Of a DNA stretch of 41,806 bases, positions 1 to 41,806 are shown piece after piece. Each line of letters starts with the position of its first letter. Position 1 is the first letter of the stretch. The notes under the pieces are model-generated. The model made no database searches. It was not told the DNA's origin and was given only the letters and a program-made list of their open reading frames with translations. The position numbers and the translations under genes were made by a program. The stretch lies in the IMG/VR virus record IMGVR_UViG_2711768061_000003, positions 1 to 41,806 of that record, one strand, 5' to 3'. The DNA comes from a virus. Taxonomy: Duplodnaviria > Heunggongvirae > Uroviricota > Caudoviricetes.

Positions 1-1182
1 ATGCTCACCGTTAAGCAGATTGAAGCAGCAAAGCCGAAAGAAAAACCATACCGCCTTCTCGATGGTAATGGCCTGTACCTTTATGTCCCTGTATCAGGGA
101 AAAAGGTATGGCAGCTTCGCTACAAGATTGACGGTAAGGAGAAAATCCTGACCGTCGGAAAATATCCGCTTATGACTTTGCAGGAGGCAAGGGATAAAGC
201 ATGGACCGCGAGGAAAGACATCTCGGTTGGCATCGATCCGGTAAAAGCGAAAAAGGCTTCGTCTAACAACAATTCCTTTAGCGCCATTTACAAGGAATGG
301 TACGAGCACAAGAAGCAAGTCTGGTCAGTAGGCTATGCAAATGAACTTGCCAAAATGTTTGATGACGACATTTTACCCATCATCGGCGGTCTTGAGATTC
401 AGGATATTGAGCCGATGCAACTGTTGGAAGTAATCCGCAGATTTGAAGATCGCGGTGCAATGGAGCGAGCCAACAAAGCACGCAGAAGATGCGGCGAGGT
501 TTTCCGTTACGCTATTGTCACCGGAAGGGCTAAATATAACCCGGCACCTGACCTTGCTGACGCCATGAAGGGATACCGCAAGAAGAACTTCCCGTTTCTT
601 CCTGCAGACCAGATACCGGCATTCAATAAAGCACTGGCAACATTTTCAGGAAGTATCGTATCGCTCATTGCGACCAAAGTTTTACGCTACACAGCCCTAA
701 GAACGAAAGAGCTTCGTTCCATGCAATGGAAGAACGTCGATTTTGAAAACAGGATTATCACCATCGACGCCAATGTGATGAAGGGACGCAAAATTCATGT
801 GGTTCCTATGTCAGACCAGGTAGTTGAACTTCTCACTACGCTAAGCTCAATCACTAAACCAGTGTCAGAGTTTGTTTTTGCCGGGCGCAACGATAAGAAG
901 AAGCCAATCTGCGAGAACGCGGTATTACTTGTGATCAAACAAATCGGCTATGAGGGTCTGGAAAGCGGTCACGGATTCAGGCATGAATTCAGCACGATTA
1001 TGAACGAGAACGAATGGCCTGCTGATGCTATTGAAGTGCAACTGGCACATGCCAACGGCGGATCTGTGCGCGGTATTTACAACCACGCTCAGTATCTCGA
1101 TAAGCGCAGAGAAATGATGCAGTGGTGGGCGGACTGGCTTGATGGAGAGAAAAATAGCGCAACTTTTAGGCCACATCAATGA
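1..1182 (+). CDS. int: tyrosine integrase, P4/IntS family
   Basis: 393-aa ORF starting at window position 1; translation closely resembles E. coli CPS-53 IntS as recalled; C-terminal catalytic region with R...HxxR...Y-type motifs (HGFRHEF, YNHAQY). Confidence 0.95.
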   Translation: MLTVKQIEAAKPKEKPYRLLDGNGLYLYVPVSGKKVWQLRYKIDGKEKILTVGKYPLMTLQEARDKAWTARKDISVGIDPVKAKKASSNNNSFSAIYKEWYEHKKQVWSVGYANELAKMFDDDILPIIGGLEIQDIEPMQLLEVIRRFEDRGAMERANKARRRCGEVFRYAIVTGRAKYNPAPDLADAMKGYRKKNFPFLPADQIPAFNKALATFSGSIVSLIATKVLRYTALRTKELRSMQWKNVDFENRIITIDANVMKGRKIHVVPMSDQVVELLTTLSSITKPVSEFVFAGRNDKKKPICENAVLLVIKQIGYEGLESGHGFRHEFSTIMNENEWPADAIEVQLAHANGGSVRGIYNHAQYLDKRREMMQWWADWLDGEKNSATFRPHQ

Positions 1183-1354
1183 AATTGTTTTCCCATGCAT
1201 GAGCAAAAATTAGAATAACATTGCATAGTCACAGTATCGATCATGATTCACAGCAATGATAGAATACAAATAAATTTAACATGTTTCCACCGAAACAATC
1301 ACACATGTAGCATTCGTCTTTTTTTGATGTAATTAACATTAAATGGTATAACAT

Positions 1355-3142
1355 ATGGAACTGAAATACAGACCCGAAATTGATGGGTTGAGAACATTAG
1401 CTGTTTTACCTGTTATCTTTTTTCATGCAGGTGTTCAATGGATTCCTGGCGGCTTTCTTGGAGTAGATGTTTTTTTTGTTATTAGTGGTTTTTTAATTAC
1501 CAGCATTTTGCTGAAAGAATGCAGCAATAGAACATTTACATTCTCTGGGTTTTATGAGAGAAGGGTTCGTAGAATTGCGCCTGCATTAATTCTAATGACA
1601 TCAGTAATATTCATTATATCATTATTTATGATGGTTCCATATGACCTAAAGAATCTAGGCCAATCAGTTGTTGCAACAATTTTTTCAGCAAACAATATAT
1701 TATTGTACTTAACGTCAGGATATTGGTCTACAGCATCTGAATTTAAACCATTGTATCACACATGGAGTCTTGCTGTAGAAGAACAGTATTATCTTGTAGC
1801 CCCTGTAATAATATATATAATTTACTCAATAAATCATAATAAACTAATAAAGAATAGTTTTATGTTTTTACTGGTAATATCAATTGCCAGTTTTTTATAT
1901 GCAACAATTACAACAGTGCATAATATGGAGTTTTCATTTCTTATGCTCCCTTCAAGGGCGTGGGAGATTGCTCTTGGTGGGGTTGCCGCTATTGCGCACT
2001 ATAAAATAAAAATAAAAAGTAACATCTTATCATACCTTGGTTTTTTATTGATAATATCAAGTTACTTCCTTGTGAATGGTAAAAAATCACACCCTGGATT
2101 TGAAACATTATTTCCAGTTCTTGGTGCATGTTTGTTTTTAATGCATTCAAATGCATCTAAAGGAATTGGAAAGATCATGTCAATAAAACCAATTGTGTTA
2201 TGTGGCATGATAAGTTATTCGCTATACCTTTGGCATCAACCTGTTTTTGCATTTATAAGATTAAACTCAAAATTTGAACCGTCAACAACATATTTTATCG
2301 CATCCATTCCTTTAATTTTTATTATATCGTGGATGTCTTATGTTTTTGTAGAAAAACCATTCAGAAACAAGAGAAAAACATCTACAAAAAAAATCTTATC
2401 ATATACATTAGCATTTTCGTTGGTGTTATCAGCATCAGGAATTTTGATGCACAAAACATATGGATTGCAAAATGTCAGGCCTGATCTTGCATATGGAGGA
2501 AATCCACAGGAGTATGTGGATACCCCGAAGAAATTAAAGAATATTGAGTTCTCAGACAATGGAAAGAAAATATTAATCATGGGTAACTCATATGCGAGAG
2601 ATTTAATTAATGCAATATCTACAAAGATTAAAACAAATGATCTTAATATTGTATATTTTGAGGGTGGATGTGATTGGTCAATAGATAATAAAAATAAATT
2701 AGATTACTACTTGAATGACTCAGACATTATTTTATATTCGGAGAATTGGGGTGCAGGCGACTATAATAATAACGTTGAAAAGTTAAAACACTGTTACGAT
2801 TACATAAAGTCAAAAACAACTGCAAAAATGTACTTGATTGGCACAAAAAACTTCGGGTATAACAATAACTTTGCTGTTAACCTGTCTCTTAATGACAGAG
2901 TTTTAGCAAAAACATACCCGCTATCAAGATATATAGAGTTTAACAATAAGGCGAAAATGATTTTTGGCGATGACTACATAGATTTGTTTGACCTTATAAA
3001 AGACAACAATGGAATGGTTAGAGTTTTTGATGAGAATGGCAAATTTTTATCATATGATGCAAACCATCTAACGAAATATGGAGCAAGTTACATTGGAGAA
3101 GTCTTAGACAAAAAAACAGACTTACTTCAATCTTTGAAATAA
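1355..3142 (+). CDS. membrane O-acetyltransferase (acyltransferase-3 family N-terminal domain with SGNH-like C-terminal domain); likely O-antigen or polysaccharide modifying moron
   Basis: 595-aa ORF; N-terminal motifs typical of acyltransferase-3 (DGLRTLAVLPVIFFHAG, VDVFFVISGFLIT); multiple hydrophobic segments followed by a soluble C-terminal domain; markedly AT-rich versus neighbouring genes; sits in the int-tailspike moron slot. Confidence 0.8.
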   Translation: MELKYRPEIDGLRTLAVLPVIFFHAGVQWIPGGFLGVDVFFVISGFLITSILLKECSNRTFTFSGFYERRVRRIAPALILMTSVIFIISLFMMVPYDLKNLGQSVVATIFSANNILLYLTSGYWSTASEFKPLYHTWSLAVEEQYYLVAPVIIYIIYSINHNKLIKNSFMFLLVISIASFLYATITTVHNMEFSFLMLPSRAWEIALGGVAAIAHYKIKIKSNILSYLGFLLIISSYFLVNGKKSHPGFETLFPVLGACLFLMHSNASKGIGKIMSIKPIVLCGMISYSLYLWHQPVFAFIRLNSKFEPSTTYFIASIPLIFIISWMSYVFVEKPFRNKRKTSTKKILSYTLAFSLVLSASGILMHKTYGLQNVRPDLAYGGNPQEYVDTPKKLKNIEFSDNGKKILIMGNSYARDLINAISTKIKTNDLNIVYFEGGCDWSIDNKNKLDYYLNDSDIILYSENWGAGDYNNNVEKLKHCYDYIKSKTTAKMYLIGTKNFGYNNNFAVNLSLNDRVLAKTYPLSRYIEFNNKAKMIFGDDYIDLFDLIKDNNGMVRVFDENGKFLSYDANHLTKYGASYIGEVLDKKTDLLQSLK

Positions 3143-3175
3143 AATATATAATTTATTAGTCGCTCCCCAAAAAAT

Positions 3176-3203
3176 ATACCACCTCTTATGTTGAGGTGGT
3201 ATA
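3176..3203. terminator. putative bidirectional rho-independent terminator between convergent acetyltransferase and tailspike genes
   Basis: Inverted repeat ATACCACCTC-(8 nt)-GAGGTGGTAT flanked by A-run on one side and AT-rich sequence on the other. Confidence 0.5.
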
Positions 3204-3233
3204 TAGATAATAACTATAGACTATTGCGTTTGT

Positions 3234-5408
3234 TTATTTCTGCATCCTTTTTATCTCTCTACGCATATATGCAGCCTCAAGACAAAGTATTTCTTCGTAG
3301 CGTACAGTGTAACCTGAGTGAGCCTCCTGTGCAGCCTGAAGCAGCACCTTAGTGCCGTCGTCTAAAGTATCATACACCGCCTCTGTCGCGGGGGTATCAT
3401 CATAGCAAAGGATGCCGTACTCGAAAGGGTCCACTCCGTGGGCCTCAAATGCCGCCTTGATGTCTTGCGCGATAACCCCAATATGTCTCCGGGCTTTACT
3501 ACCTTTTTCTGCCACGCTTGCCTTTAATTTATAAGCCACATACTGGACGTCCCCCCAGGCGTCGAGAACAGCATCAGGTATTTGTGACTCTTCTGTTTTT
3601 GAGTTTCTGTCTGACGTGACCTGAAAAGCTGTTTGTGTATACCCACCTGACCATGCATATGCTGACGTTCCACATGTTTGAGCGTTCTGCCGACCAGGCC
3701 TAACATAATCTACGCCCCAAACAAGAACCGATGAATAGCCTATTTTCCAGTATGCTATTTTTGATACGCTATCAACTACTTGCTGCTGCTCATACAGGCC
3801 GTTTTTTGTGCGATAGGTCGTTGTTTGATAGCTTCTTGGAAGAAATTGAAGCCCCTGCGTACTTAAGCTCCTTATTGAATTTATAATATCAGGATTGGCG
3901 CCGCCTTGTGTTCTTGCAATAGTCATTCCGTCTGAACAAGCTGGGTGACCATATTTAAGACGAAGATTTTTTATCTCTGTAAGAGACTCTGCCCGGTTTG
4001 TATCGTCTCCTGATTTAAGCAAGTACCAACCAGCCACTGAGCTGTTATGCTCAACTAGGTTTTTAAACACGAATTTAGGGTCTGTGAAGTTTTCTGCGTA
4101 TTGCGGAGGATTCATAAGAACCAGCCCTTTAAACCCTGAATCGGTACGAGAGTTGTTAATGTGCAGCCCATCTATAATGATGTGGTCTGACTGGGTATTT
4201 TCGGTGCCGTCGGTTTTAAGATAAATCAGATTTTGGCCTTTAAAGTATTCAAACCAGCCATCGTTAATCTTAAAGTTAAAGAACTGTTGCAGATAGAAAA
4301 ACGCCCCGCCAAATACCTCGTTTTTCTCAAACCATGGGTTGTTTATGGTGAAGTTAAACCCACCTATAATACGGAAGAACATTCTGGCGCGAGCATCAAG
4401 GAAGATTGGGCTTTCCATGAAGTTTAAATTAAACGCTGCAAAAGGGTTGTTGTCATCCACAGGGGTATCAACAATGTAACCGGAGTCGTTAACCGTTTTG
4501 AAAATTGGGTTATAGTGGTAAACAGCAATCCATGACGCTTTCCATACAGTATGAAAGCCTTGCCATACACAGTTATGAGTGGTAAATGTTGCCACCCAAT
4601 TACCAGCGGCGGCTTCCATGAAAACGTTGGCGCTATTTAAAACATTAGAGCCATCGAAAATAATATTTTTAAAAGTGCAATACTGGAACTGATAAGGACC
4701 ATCTTGCGTGAACATAGTATACCCGCCAGATGATTTAATAGTGGCTTTCCCGTTAGGGCAGATGATATTGAAAGACTTCCAAGCCTCTGTATGTAAAGGT
4801 TTACTTGTCACGTAGACAAATCCAGCAGGAATTAACAATCCAGCATTAGCATTAAGCACAGAAATAACTTTGTCATCCACCTCTGGATTAGCTAAGCCAC
4901 TTATTGCCCCTAAATCTTGTATGGATAGCAGGTCAGAATTTTTATCATGCTGAGTCCTTCTTATTGCATCAAAAAAAGGCTGTTTAACGCCAATTAACGC
5001 ATCACCTTTACTTTCATCATCTAAATATTTACCCGTTTGGGCAAGCTGATTAACGATGTCAATACTGAATTTGTCGGGGTCATATTTCAGTACATTATGG
5101 AAATAGAACTGCTGCGCACCATACGCATCATAAACAGCCATAGAATGGCCTTGTACAGTTACGAATTTGGCAATCTGTCCGTTATATACTGGGTAACCAG
5201 CAGCGTTAATGATGATTGGTTGCGAAACAGGAACGTGAGAACCGTCTTCGTTCTCCACATAAACCTGAATCTGGTTTTCAGGATTTACCGGGTCAGTGTC
5301 AATTTTACCGATATAAATTTTGCCATTGGCTACGGCTTTAAAAGAACGAGCCATAGTGAAGAGTTGCGAAGGCATCGATACGATCACATTGGCTGTAATG
5401 TCTGTCAT
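3234..5408 (-). CDS. tailspike protein: P22-gp9-like N-terminal head-binding domain, divergent central receptor-binding domain, C-terminal intramolecular chaperone (S74-like) domain
   Basis: 724-aa ORF; first ~110 aa ([11 protein letters not shown]...[21 protein letters not shown]...VLKYDPD) match the P22 tailspike N-terminus as recalled; C-terminus contains [26 protein letters not shown], resembling auto-cleaving chaperone domains of endosialidase/tail fibre proteins. Confidence 0.9.
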
Positions 5409-39259: not shown

Positions 39260-39324
39260 TTTATTTATTCATATATGAAAACAATGTAACCAATATTCGA
39301 ATTGAAGAACTGAAAGAACACCAA

Positions 39325-39347
39325 GCCGCCTGATGGCGGTTTTTTAT
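39325..39347 (+). terminator. putative rho-independent terminator
   Basis: Hairpin GCCGCC-TGAT-GGCGGT followed by a T-run. Confidence 0.5.
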
Positions 39348-39359
39348 TGGAGACAAGAA

Positions 39360-39704
39360 ATGTCAGATTTGGCTATGAAGATTTTGAAATGGCAATCGAC
39401 TGGCGATGTCGGCATCAGTAGCGCAACTCTTGCCTCAATCGCATGTGGACTGAAAAAGAATATCTATGGTCATCACTTCGGCGCTCCACATGACGCAGCC
39501 GATTTCCGACGATGCGTTGCACTTGTTGAGCAGATTCCAGAAATCAGAGATTCATTCAACAAGGTTGCAAAGCGCGTTCCGGCATTCAAAGGAATCCTCA
39601 ACGAATGGGATTCACTCGTTGCTCTGTTGAAGTCTGAAATGAAGATACACGGAAACAAAGCACCAGAGACTTACAGAAGAATTAGCGAGTTACGCAAGGA
39701 CTAA
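39360..39704 (+). CDS. hypothetical protein
   Basis: 114-aa product from an internal ATG with GGAGA RBS, just downstream of the terminator. Confidence 0.5.
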   Translation: MSDLAMKILKWQSTGDVGISSATLASIACGLKKNIYGHHFGAPHDAADFRRCVALVEQIPEIRDSFNKVAKRVPAFKGILNEWDSLVALLKSEMKIHGNKAPETYRRISELRKD

Positions 39705-39763
39705 CCACAGCCTCACATTCGATGAGGCATTTTCATTTATCAAGATATCCAGACCTACCATCG

Positions 39764-39785
39764 CCGCATCAATGCGGTTTTTTAT
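39764..39785 (+). terminator. putative rho-independent terminator upstream of xis
   Basis: Short hairpin (CCGCAT...ATGCGG) followed by TTTTTTATT. Confidence 0.4.
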
Positions 39786-39828
39786 TACCTGATTTGCAGG
39801 TTCGATTCCCTATTCGGAGATAGCACTC

Positions 39829-40029
39829 ATGCAACACGAACTACAGCCTGATTCCCTGGTTGATTTGAAATTCATCATGGCTGATACTGGCTTTGGTAAA
39901 ACCTTCATCTACGACCGGATTAAGTCCGGCGACCTGCCAAAAGCCAAAGTTATCCACGGACGAGCAAGATGGTTATATCGTGACCATTGTGAATTCAAAA
40001 ATAAGCTCTTAAGCCGCGCCAATGGGTAA
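39829..40029 (+). CDS. xis: excisionase/regulator, AlpA family (MerR-like HTH)
   Basis: 66-aa ORF with AlpA-type HTH (DLKFIMADTGFGKTFIYDRIKSGDLPKA); last phage gene before attR; AlpA-type excisionases typically pair with P4-family integrases. Confidence 0.7.
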   Translation: MQHELQPDSLVDLKFIMADTGFGKTFIYDRIKSGDLPKAKVIHGRARWLYRDHCEFKNKLLSRANG

Positions 40030-40101
40030 AATAGCGGGTAAAATATTTCTCACATCTAAAAAACACCATTCCAATCAATCCCCTGCCACCTCAAGTAGAT
40101 G

Positions 40102-40116
40102 TCTGCAGGGGACACC
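40102..40116 (+). other. attR core: 15-nt match to the 3' end of tRNA-Arg (argW-type), CTGCAGGGGACACCA
   Basis: Matches the T-stem 3' half, acceptor 3' strand and ACCA of E. coli argW as recalled; sits between the last phage gene and the host permease gene. Confidence 0.6.
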
Positions 40117-40558
40117 AGATACCCTTCAAACGAAATCTACCTTCACCCCGTAAAAGATGGGTTTGGCAGCACACTTGCCTTATATCTACTCATTTTTACT
40201 GCAACAGGTTGAAATCTCAGCACTGTCAGAAAGCGCTGATGACTAAACAGCCCTGGGCCGGGCGATGTAACCATCACACAGAATCCTGATAGCGAAATAT
40301 GGCGTGACTCGATACTTCACTCCGCAATGCATTCCTTGATGAATTCGCAGGACCGTGATACACGGGACAGGTCACTGAATGACGACAATGTCCTGGAAAT
40401 CAGCGAACCGCGCATCTGAAGTACATTTGAGCGACTGTACCAGAACATGAATGAGGCGTTTGGATTAGGCGATTATTAGCAGGGCTAAGCATTTTACTAT
40501 TATTATTTTCCGGTTGAGGGATATAGAGCTATCGACAACAACCGGAAAAAGTTTACGT

Positions 40559-41806
40559 CTATATTGCTGAAGGTACAGGCGTTTCCATAACTATTTGCTC
40601 GCGTTTTTTACTCAAGAAGAAAATGCCAAATAGCAACATCAGGCAGACAATACCCGAAATTGCGAAGAAAACTGTCTGGTAGCCTGCGTGGTCAAAGAGT
40701 ATCCCAGTCGGCGTTGAAAGCAGCACAATCCCAAGCGAACTGGCAATTTGAAAACCAATCAGAAAGATCGTCGACGACAGGCGCTTATCAAAGTTTGCCA
40801 CGCTGTATTTGAAGACGGATATGACACAAAGTGGAACCTCAATGGCATGTAACAACTTCACTAATGAAATAATCCAGGGGTTAACGAACAGCGCGCAGGA
40901 AAGGATACGCAACGCCATAATCACAACTCCGATAAGTAATGCATTTTTTGGCCCTACCCGATTCACAAAGAAAGGAATAATCGCCATGCACAGCGCTTCG
41001 AGTACCACCTGGAATGAGTTGAGATAACCATACAGGCGCGTTCCTACATCGTGTGATTCGAATAAACCTGCATAAAAGACAGGAAAAAGTTGTTGATCAA
41101 AAATGTTATAGAAAGACCACGTCCCCACAATAAATATGACGAAAACCCAGAAGTTTCGATCCTTGAAAACTGCGATAAAATCCTCTTTTTTTACCCCTCC
41201 CGCATCTGCCGCTACGCACTGGTGATCCTTATCTTTAAAACGCATGTTGATCATCATAAATACAGCGCCAAATAGCGAGACCAACCAGAAGTTGATATGG
41301 GGACTGATACTAAAAAATATGCCGGCAAAGAACGCGCCAATAGCATAGCCAAAAGATCCCCAGGCGCGCGCTGTTCCATATTCGAAATGAAAATTTCGCG
41401 CCATTTTTTCGGTGAAGCTATCAAGCAAACCGCATCCCGCCAGATACCCCAAGCCAAAAAATAGCGCCCCCAGAATTAGACCTACAGAAAAATTGCTTTG
41501 CAGTAACGGTTCATAAACGTAAATCATAAACGGTCCGGTCAAGACCAGGATGAAACTCATACACCAGATGAGCGGTTTCTTCAGACCGAGTTTATCCTGA
41601 ACGATGCCGTAGAACATCATAAATAGAATGCTGGTAAACTGGTTGACCGAATAAAGTGTACCTAATTCCGTCCCTGTCAACCCTAGATGTCCTTTCAGCC
41701 AAATAGCGTATAACGACCACCACAGCGACCAGGAAATAAAAAAGAGAAATGAGTAACTGGATGCAAAACGATAGTACGCATTTCTGAATGGAATATTCAG
41801 TGCCAT
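40559..41806 (-). CDS. cscB: LacY-family oligosaccharide:H+ symporter, sucrose permease CscB-like (host gene)
   Basis: 415-aa 12-TM protein with LacY-family sequence pattern; start codon at the window edge (41806); the csc locus is known to lie near argW in sucrose-positive E. coli. Confidence 0.8.
   Translation of the reverse strand: MALNIPFRNAYYRFASSYSFLFFISWSLWWSLYAIWLKGHLGLTGTELGTLYSVNQFTSILFMMFYGIVQDKLGLKKPLIWCMSFILVLTGPFMIYVYEPLLQSNFSVGLILGALFFGLGYLAGCGLLDSFTEKMARNFHFEYGTARAWGSFGYAIGAFFAGIFFSISPHINFWLVSLFGAVFMMINMRFKDKDHQCVAADAGGVKKEDFIAVFKDRNFWVFVIFIVGTWSFYNIFDQQLFPVFYAGLFESHDVGTRLYGYLNSFQVVLEALCMAIIPFFVNRVGPKNALLIGVVIMALRILSCALFVNPWIISLVKLLHAIEVPLCVISVFKYSVANFDKRLSSTIFLIGFQIASSLGIVLLSTPTGILFDHAGYQTVFFAISGIVCLMLLFGIFFLSKKREQIVMETPVPSAI

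Follow-up and report, generated by a model that had tools for sequence, protein, structure and literature searches.

A conserved argW T-loop box upstream of the excisionase gene torI in phage integration modules that target argW

The attR End and Its argW-Like Sequences

The window analyzed here is the whole 41,806-nucleotide (nt) stretch of the IMG/VR virus record IMGVR_UViG_2711768061_000003 (Caudoviricetes). Its right end is the right attachment site (attR) of a P22-like prophage inserted in the tRNA-Arg gene argW, and the integration module is of the IntS/TorI type (KplE1/HK620/Sf6). The feature under study is a short copy of the argW T-arm that precedes torI, the excisionase gene (xis) of this module. 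The left end of the prophage is intS (positions 1 to 1182, + strand), which encodes a heterobivalent P4-type tyrosine integrase and was assigned by its open reading frame (ORF), its Pfam domains (Arm-DNA-bind_3, Phage_int_M, and Phage_integrase), and sequence identity. The gene has approximately 98% DNA identity to annotated intS, and the protein is 99% identical to the integrase (Int) of HK633/Sf6. The torI gene (39829 to 40029, + strand) is annotated in 100%-identical genomes and encodes a winged-helix recombination directionality factor (RDF) of 66 amino acids. TorI is 100% identical to K-12 TorI, HK620 HkaC, and Sf6 gp18, and its sole Pfam match, HTH_17, is below threshold.

Two sequences in the window match argW exactly on the + strand. 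Piece 1, TTGCAGGTTCGATTCC (39794 to 39809), consists of the 5’ strand of the T-stem, the T-loop, and CC, and is termed the T-loop box. Piece 2, CTGCAGGGGACACCA (40103 to 40117), comprises the final 15 nt of argW. The reference gene was argW of JCKP02 (locus L001, 23878 to 23952), a near-identical genome with 100% identity over window positions 39600 to 40400. Because this argW ends in ...gctaaTTGCAGGTTCGATTCCTGCAGGGGACACCA (in its longer form, ...GCTAATTGCAGGTTCGATTCCTGCAGGGGACACCA), the two pieces are adjacent within the tRNA gene, where they have one C in common and jointly cover 30 contiguous nt. In the window they are spaced 293 nt apart, and torI is the sole meaningful ORF between them. 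The exact 16-mer TTGCAGGTTCGATTCC was found in 0 of 100 dinucleotide-preserving shuffles, and GGTTCGATTCC has a single occurrence across the 41.8 kb. A chance origin of the tRNA-Arg-like pieces is excluded.

An earlier sequence-only reading of this DNA had reported argW homology in two pieces that flank the xis gene. Both points hold, with the true coordinates of each piece one position higher (+1) than reported. The first half of the doubt it raised, that piece 1 might be missing from the cognate attachment site and fall within chance expectation, is removed by the presence of piece 1 in the phage attachment sites (attP) of HK620 and Sf6 and by the exclusion of chance.

No tRNA gene was predicted in the window by ARAGORN, and an Rfam search (E ≤ 10) returned no match to a tRNA or any other RNA family. 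A cloverleaf, as needed for a tRNA gene or pseudogene, was thus not detected; the window has only tRNA fragments, which are the box, the core, and the core’s inverted copy. The lack of a tRNA gene is explained by the left boundary of the window, which begins at the intS ATG and leaves the left attachment site (attL) and argW outside. The adjacency of argW and intS, in the same orientation, is seen in JCKP02 and not in the window itself.

Piece 2 is the ordinary, already known attR crossover core. The same 15-mer is labeled as pseudogene pawZ in the K-12 RefSeq record, directly after the annotated end of the cryptic prophage CPS-53, and the HK620 and Sf6 records carry an “attP core” feature at this position. 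Window positions 39763 to 40117 have 96–97% identity to HK620/Sf6, and the homology ends exactly at the end of the core. The duplicated core of KplE1, CTGCAGGGGACACCAT, has been described (PMC2951348), and excision of KplE1 from attL and attR, giving attP and attB, has been published (PMC3509656, PMC2951348). The core is likewise duplicated here, with the attR copy at 40103 to 40117 and the attL copy seen in JCKP02. A search of the window for the core with up to three mismatches gave one match only.

A synthetic empty-site query was made by joining argW to window positions 40118 to 40417. This query had a full-length match of 100% identity, and at least 80% of it was covered by one match in 1415 E. 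coli genomes. The junction between prophage and bacterial DNA therefore falls exactly after ACCA (40117/40118), which is the end of the core.

The core, the GGGTAAAA repeats at the 3’ end of torI, and the order xis, core, int are shared with KplE1 (CPS-53), HK620, and Sf6, and the same box precedes torI in K-12, HK620, and Sf6. The host phage, in contrast, has a different mosaic composition, and coverage of window positions 1 to 4000 does not reach 80% in any E. coli genome. The locus is a known, experimentally characterized system, and the main value of the finding is negative.

A Second T-Loop Copy Rather Than a Split Core

The sequence-only reading had described a tRNA 3’-end homology split into two parts and had noted that the core of a simple integration would be contiguous. 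All relatives that were compared (HK620, Sf6, K-12 KplE1, Erwinia, Serratia, Edwardsiella, Pantoea, Citrobacter-type, Salmonella g341c, and phiEt88) have the order xis, attP core, int, which is the standard design of the module. The order box, xis, core is also present in the free phage genomes HK620, Sf6, Midgardsormr38, and phiEt88. Directly left of the core, most lineages have a degenerate T-loop, (A/G)TTCGATGTA followed by TGCAGGGG, compared with GGTTCGATTCC followed by TGCAGGGG in argW. The E. coli version of this degenerate T-loop is GTAGATGTC (40095 to 40103, + strand); most relatives read (A/G)TTCGATGTA and then TGCAGGGGACACCA, where argW reads GGTTCGATTCC and then TGCAGGGGACACCA. Since a degenerate T-loop already stands beside the core in attP, piece 1 is a second T-loop copy and not a missing half.

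A 135-bp attR that begins at window position 40007 is sufficient for excisive recombination in vitro (PMC3509656). One of the primers for this substrate, CTCTTAAGCCGCGCCAATGG, corresponds to window positions 40007 to 40026 (PMC3509656). Piece 1 falls approximately 200 bp outside this substrate. Because the 135-bp attR works in vitro, strand exchange does not require the box.

The earlier reading had also suggested a nested or sequential integration, with the xis module captured between two attachment-like sites, or a secondary att site; tandem integration was considered here as well. In favor of such an origin, the two pieces adjoin each other in argW and flank xis, and tandem elements do occur at argW elsewhere. 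However, a conservative exchange at the core puts the argW T-arm beside intS, at attL, and not beside torI, so a tandem or nested origin needs extra illegitimate events. There is no second integrase, second core, or other junction in the window; the arrangement is family-wide, free phage genomes included; and the only bacterial junction is at 40117/40118. This origin is scarcely credible, and neither the nested integration nor the secondary att site proposed earlier is retained. At two other loci an additional integrase, which is intact or truncated and has other arm repeats, lies directly past attR (L295, approximately 3905 to 4020; L361, after the core).

The attP of epsilon34 is comparable in that it contains tRNA-derived sequence that restores the tRNA’s 3’ end after integration. 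In epsilon34, an example of the phages whose attP has a long unbroken tRNA 3’ segment, 43 bp identical to argU form one contiguous block downstream of int (PMC2629481). Here, by contrast, exact identity is limited to 15 nt, the T-loop beside the core is of the degenerate kind, and the xis leader, at a distance of 293 nt, contains another copy of the T-loop that is exact.

Conservation of the T-Loop Box

Relatives of TorI were collected from GTDB genomes, IMG/VR, and GenBank phages and were counted as distinct combinations of leader and Xis (n = 139). The invariant core of the box is GTTCGATT (39800 to 39807, + strand), followed in the window by CC at 39808 to 39809. This sequence is present exactly in 102 of the 139 combinations and with one mismatch in 4, and the box is absent from the remaining 33. 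The exact boxes occur in 44 different immediate contexts and precede 62 different Xis proteins. In leader alignments, the box is a constant block while its flanks vary. The exact-or-absent pattern, together with the variable flanks, points to purifying selection where the box is present. The box is thus a separately conserved family trait, exact or absent, of xis-attP-int modules that target argW.

The position of the box is also constant. Its modal distance from the xis ATG is 29 nt, and it ends 4–7 nt before the Shine-Dalgarno (SD) sequence. In the window, the torI SD (GGAG, 39816 to 39819, + strand, read from the sequence) begins 6 nt past the box, within a CGGAGAT block that is conserved in the leader alignments. 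The GTTCGATT sequence is usually followed by CC or TCC, and variation within the box occurs at this core-proximal end only (CC, TCC, or ACC). ORFs that cross the box are short and not conserved.

The box spans approximately nine genera and two xis lineages that are 39–44% identical. It was found in Escherichia/Shigella, Citrobacter-type, Serratia, Pantoea, Edwardsiella, Erwinia, and Salmonella (g341c-like) modules and in metagenomic phages. The conserved part corresponds to tRNA position G53, the T-loop, and C61/C62. The part derived from the 5’ strand of the T-stem differs by lineage; it reads GCAGG in E. coli and CCAGG, ACAGG, TCAG-, CCTG-, or CAAG- elsewhere. The full 16-nt argW identity in E. 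coli is therefore partly lineage-specific, and the Serratia box has a 15-nt identity to argW (CAGGTTCGATTCCTG). These additional tRNA flanks were considered as proof of ancestry and set aside as weak, since the three extra bases in E. coli and two in Serratia could be due to chance among approximately 10 lineages.

The box is dispensable. Leaders without it often show a clean deletion to ...GCCTGGAGAT. Rare singleton mutations of the box occur in E. coli prophages. More distant phages with other tRNA targets (Pseudomonas F116-like phages, Yersinia YeP5, Achromobacter AchV4, and Klebsiella Kp4865-2) have other gene orders or are of the ssrA type.

Two forms of tandem double box were observed. 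Erwinia Midgardsormr38-like phages contain two copies of CAGGTTCGATTCCC with a 16-nt period (L005, 1985 to 2017; L111 to L113), and one further locus (L115) contains GTTCGATTCCC and GTTCGATTACC with a 15-nt period. A relative of the double-box loci, L114, has reverted to a single copy. In addition, a near-identical leader that includes the terminator, hairpin, box, and SD precedes two xis genes of approximately 44% identity (L229, L242, and L295 versus L014 and L118). A leader shared by two such genes indicates a mosaic junction at or near the xis start codon.

Second Lineage and Excisionase Repeat Switching

argW is also the target of a second xis lineage, which for the most part has the same box. 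Its Xis and Int are 44% and 61% identical, respectively, to those of the window, and its arm repeats are GGGCATAA. Every box-bearing module carries the same TGCAGGGGAC core. Salmonella g341c/Emek and Erwinia phiEt88 share with the window the argW core, the gene order, the box before xis, and the inverted core repeat. They differ from it in that Xis is 39–52% and Int approximately 60% identical, the arm repeats are GGGCATAA, and RTTACC, GTTCT, or GAAC replaces GTTCGC as the excisionase repeat. The Xis of phiEt88 is 38.7% identical to TorI, and its box is the same.

Five TorI sites with the cores GTTCG, GATCG, and GTCCG have been mapped on attL (PMC2951348). In the sequences compared here, the excisionase repeats of the P’ arm lie at fixed offsets of 10, 30, 73, 83, and 93 nt past the core and read nAGTTCGC in lineage 1. 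Sites at these offsets are present in JCKP02, HK620, and Sf6. Where the P’-arm repeats switch between nAGTTCGC, RTTACC/GTAACC, and CAGAAC, the box remains GTTCGATT.

The repeat type was recorded by locus. It is GTTCGC in L003, L005, L006, L007, and L157; RTTACC/GTAACC in L349, L367, and L416; CAGAAC in L409; and GTTCT/GTTCG in L391 and L404. The switch tracks the recognition-helix region of Xis, which reads GKTFIY, AKYFY, or DRYFY. Lineages with switched RDF repeats at fixed positions form a natural specificity-swap series and are a ready dataset for the study of RDF specificity.

Organization of the Attachment Site

Two direct repeats of GGGTAAAATA (40024 to 40045, + strand) overlap the torI stop codon and are conserved in all lineage 1 loci. 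They are putative IntS arm-type sites, P1 and P2. The IntS arm-type sites of the P’ arm have a TAAA motif in common (PMC2951348). The degenerate T-loop GTAGATGTC is presumed to be a C-type core half-site from its position and its partial dyad symmetry with GACACC.

Core bases 40105 to 40112 (GCAGGGGA) recur in inverted orientation in the P arm, 18 nt upstream, as TCCCCTGC (40079 to 40086, + strand). Of 99 distinct att regions, 72 have the exact inverted copy, and its distance upstream of the core is 17–18 nt in lineage 1 and 23 nt in lineage 2. Compensatory changes were found at two loci. In Edwardsiella (L147) the core reads GCAGGGAA and the inverted copy TTCCCTGC; in Rouxiella (L018) they read GTAGGGGA and CCCCCTAC. 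The inverted copy, the core, and the 3’ CACCA together resemble a tRNA acceptor/T-stem minihelix.

Possible Roles of the Box

From these leader comparisons, the box is probably a tRNA-derived, functional cis-regulatory element of the torI leader. An ancestral attP may have carried a copy of the argW T-arm from which the box descends, and selection would then have kept the box for control of xis (torI) expression and not for strand exchange. The literature search, which did not extend to a 2007 JBC paper on att mapping and a 2013 PNAS paper on Rho and torI, found no account of the box as an argW T-arm or of its family-wide conservation. The GenBank records of HK620 and Sf6 already contain the box sequence itself and label it as a putative promoter.

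Integrase docking is the leading mechanism, held only tentatively. It is proposed because the argW core is the one feature that all box-bearing modules share and because the box is identical to the B-side half-site of argW, which every integrase of the family must recognize. As such a half-site, the box could dock the core-binding and catalytic domains of integrase while the N-terminal domain occupies the P1/P2 arm sites approximately 215 bp downstream. Integrase bridged in this manner might loop out or roadblock torI and thus shut off the excisionase for as long as integrase is there. Such docking would suit a family whose xis and int are transcriptionally uncoupled and whose excision is believed to be controlled through the RDF (PMC2951348). 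A role in the mRNA leader, through SD occlusion or as a processing or pairing site, is nearly as likely as docking given the tight linkage of box and SD, and is likewise a possibility more than an expectation.

Several observations weigh against a regulatory role in general or against one of these mechanisms. Viable phages lack the box, including Klebsiella RCIP0114, Erwinia EhrS49, and several of lineage 2 that have the clean deletion to ...GCCTGGAGAT. Part of the sampled diversity reflects mosaic leader sharing and not independent conservation, for example the Citrobacter-type leader that precedes two xis genes. Docking is weakened by the C-type half-sites of attP, which vary (TTCGAT, TTAGAT, GTAGAT, and TGTGAT) where the box never does, and by the restriction of box variation to the core-proximal end. 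A role in RNA is weakened by minimum free energy folds of 30 diverse leaders, which gave no consensus fold. The 3’ part of the box, AUU(U)CC, or else UUCGA, often pairs with the SD in these folds; the geometry is inconsistent between lineages, the SD partner is lineage-dependent, and there is no usable covariation. A T-arm-like leader hairpin was seen solely in Edwardsiella, P. stewartii, and Serratia.

The most substantial rival to a regulatory element is a neutral relic, in which a T-arm fragment of a longer ancestral argW segment in attP was left upstream of xis by rearrangement or duplication and has no function. The clear likeness to the tRNA over 16 nt in E. coli and 15 nt in Serratia, the dispensability of the box in many lineages, and the sharing that mosaic leader exchange can explain are all as a relic would have them. 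A relic should nevertheless decay, and the counts of 102 exact, 4 one-mismatch, and 33 absent are bimodal and show no decay continuum. An invariant block of 8–10 nt between diverged flanks, retained over xis lineages 39–44% identical, also does not fit, and the relic is considered unlikely. The box might instead belong to an extended attP arm, as an accessory intasome site at which integrase or a host factor aids integration or excision in vivo. Its identity as the argW B-side half-site, its place on the P-arm side at a near-constant distance of approximately 215 bp from P1/P2, and the one core common to all box-bearing modules would suit such a site. This is improbable, however, given that the 135-bp attR is enough in vitro, that phages without the box are functional, and that the conservation pattern is unlike that of C-type half-sites.

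Two further rivals treat the box as a site for a known regulator. In one, it is a TorI operator for autoregulation, as its GTTCG, contained in AGGTTCGA, is the core of mapped attL TorI sites (GTTCG, GATCG, and GTCCG; PMC2951348) in the same orientation. Excisionases often double as transcriptional regulators, with Apl as an example (PMC7498355). Yet the P’-arm sites read GTTCGC or GTTCGT where the box always reads GTTCGA, and the box is unchanged where the excisionase repeats are RTTACC/GTAACC or CAGAAC. Autoregulation through the box is very unlikely, and the candidate TorI site nnGTTCG(C/T) was rejected after the P’-arm repeats were compared across lineages. The other rival follows the GenBank annotation, in which a cII-activated integration promoter, pI, overlaps the box and drives int for lysogenization. 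The HK620 record (L003) has the features “cII protein” (1523 to 1535) and “promoter, phage integration” (1522 to 1560), and the Sf6 record has a “pI” feature. The cII sites of lambda have the spacing TTGC-N6-TTGC, whereas HK620 has TTGC-N5-TTGC and the window TTAC-N5-TTGC. Edwardsiella, Erwinia, Serratia, Pantoea, and phiEt88 have no upstream half-site, and yet the box, as the supposed spacer, is invariant. Such a promoter would also express xis together with int, and intS has its own promoter, mapped in attL (PMC2951348). No sigma-70 promoter was predicted in a scan of positions 39300 to 40300. An overlapping pI promoter therefore has next to no standing as an explanation. Sigma-54 and cII readings of the leader were also dropped, as neither was conserved when compared by eye against the alignments.

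The control of xis and int in lambda by pI/cII and sib addresses the same problem, which is to supply Int without Xis at lysogenization and Xis only at induction. The present module differs from lambda in its gene order, since with xis, attP, and int in this order integration separates xis from int. It also differs in that intS is under its own autoregulated promoter (PMC2951348) and in that the cII site of the annotation is neither canonical nor conserved.

A 10-nt copy of a tRNA T-loop has been kept before xis across genera, two xis/int lineages, and at least three excisionase DNA specificities, and the core is mirrored by a covarying inverted repeat; both observations may be of use in the study of integrase/excisionase control. 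Excision in this family is believed to be controlled through expression of the RDF gene (PMC2951348), which makes a conserved element in the torI leader an obvious target for mutagenesis. A broader proposal is that xis is bracketed by two functional tRNA-like modules, the T-loop box and the covarying acceptor/T-stem-like palindrome that ends in ACCA; on the sequences compared, this is doubtful. If true, the modules would couple excisionase expression to integrase occupancy, with the box as a decoy B half-site, or to the tRNA processing or modification machinery. They would then add a new level to the control of lysogeny in phages in which integration parts xis from int.

Flanking Features

An HK620-type intrinsic terminator was found by terminator scan at 39323 to 39342 (+ strand). 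In HK620 this terminator lies directly before the box, whereas the window has an insert between the two that HK620 lacks. The insert (39351 to 39786, + strand), delimited by sequence comparison, is moron-like, approximately 430 bp in length, and bounded by TTTTTTATT(G/A). It is associated with a 123-amino-acid ORF (39333 to 39704) that has no Pfam match and with its own terminator (39763 to 39778). Matches to HK022, 434, and Stx phages are confined to window positions 39600 to 39786, and the end of the insert’s ORF and its terminator stand beside int/xis in HK022, 434, and Stx1a.

A 43-amino-acid ORF (40022 to 40153) occupies the position of HK620 hkaB and Sf6 gene 17 and overlaps the torI stop codon, the arm repeats, and the core. 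Integration alters its C-terminus, and it has no Pfam match. This ORF is probably not a real gene.

Downstream of the core, positions 40118 to 40558 (+ strand) are bacterial DNA that is normally directly 3’ of argW, as identified by the empty-site query, and include a terminator-like hairpin at 40165 to 40179 from the terminator scan. Beyond it, csc sucrose utilization genes take the place of dsdC, from 40559 to 41806 (− strand) and onward (L002). The first of these past attR encodes an oligosaccharide transporter of the MFS family. The csc region is the known variable argW-dsdCXA island. The identity block shared by attL and attR is 15 nt in this strain, where ACCA is followed by G in attR and by T in attL (L001, 23953), because the bacterial flank is of the csc-locus type. 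The corresponding block is 16 nt in K-12 and is reported as 17 nt for Kapi1.

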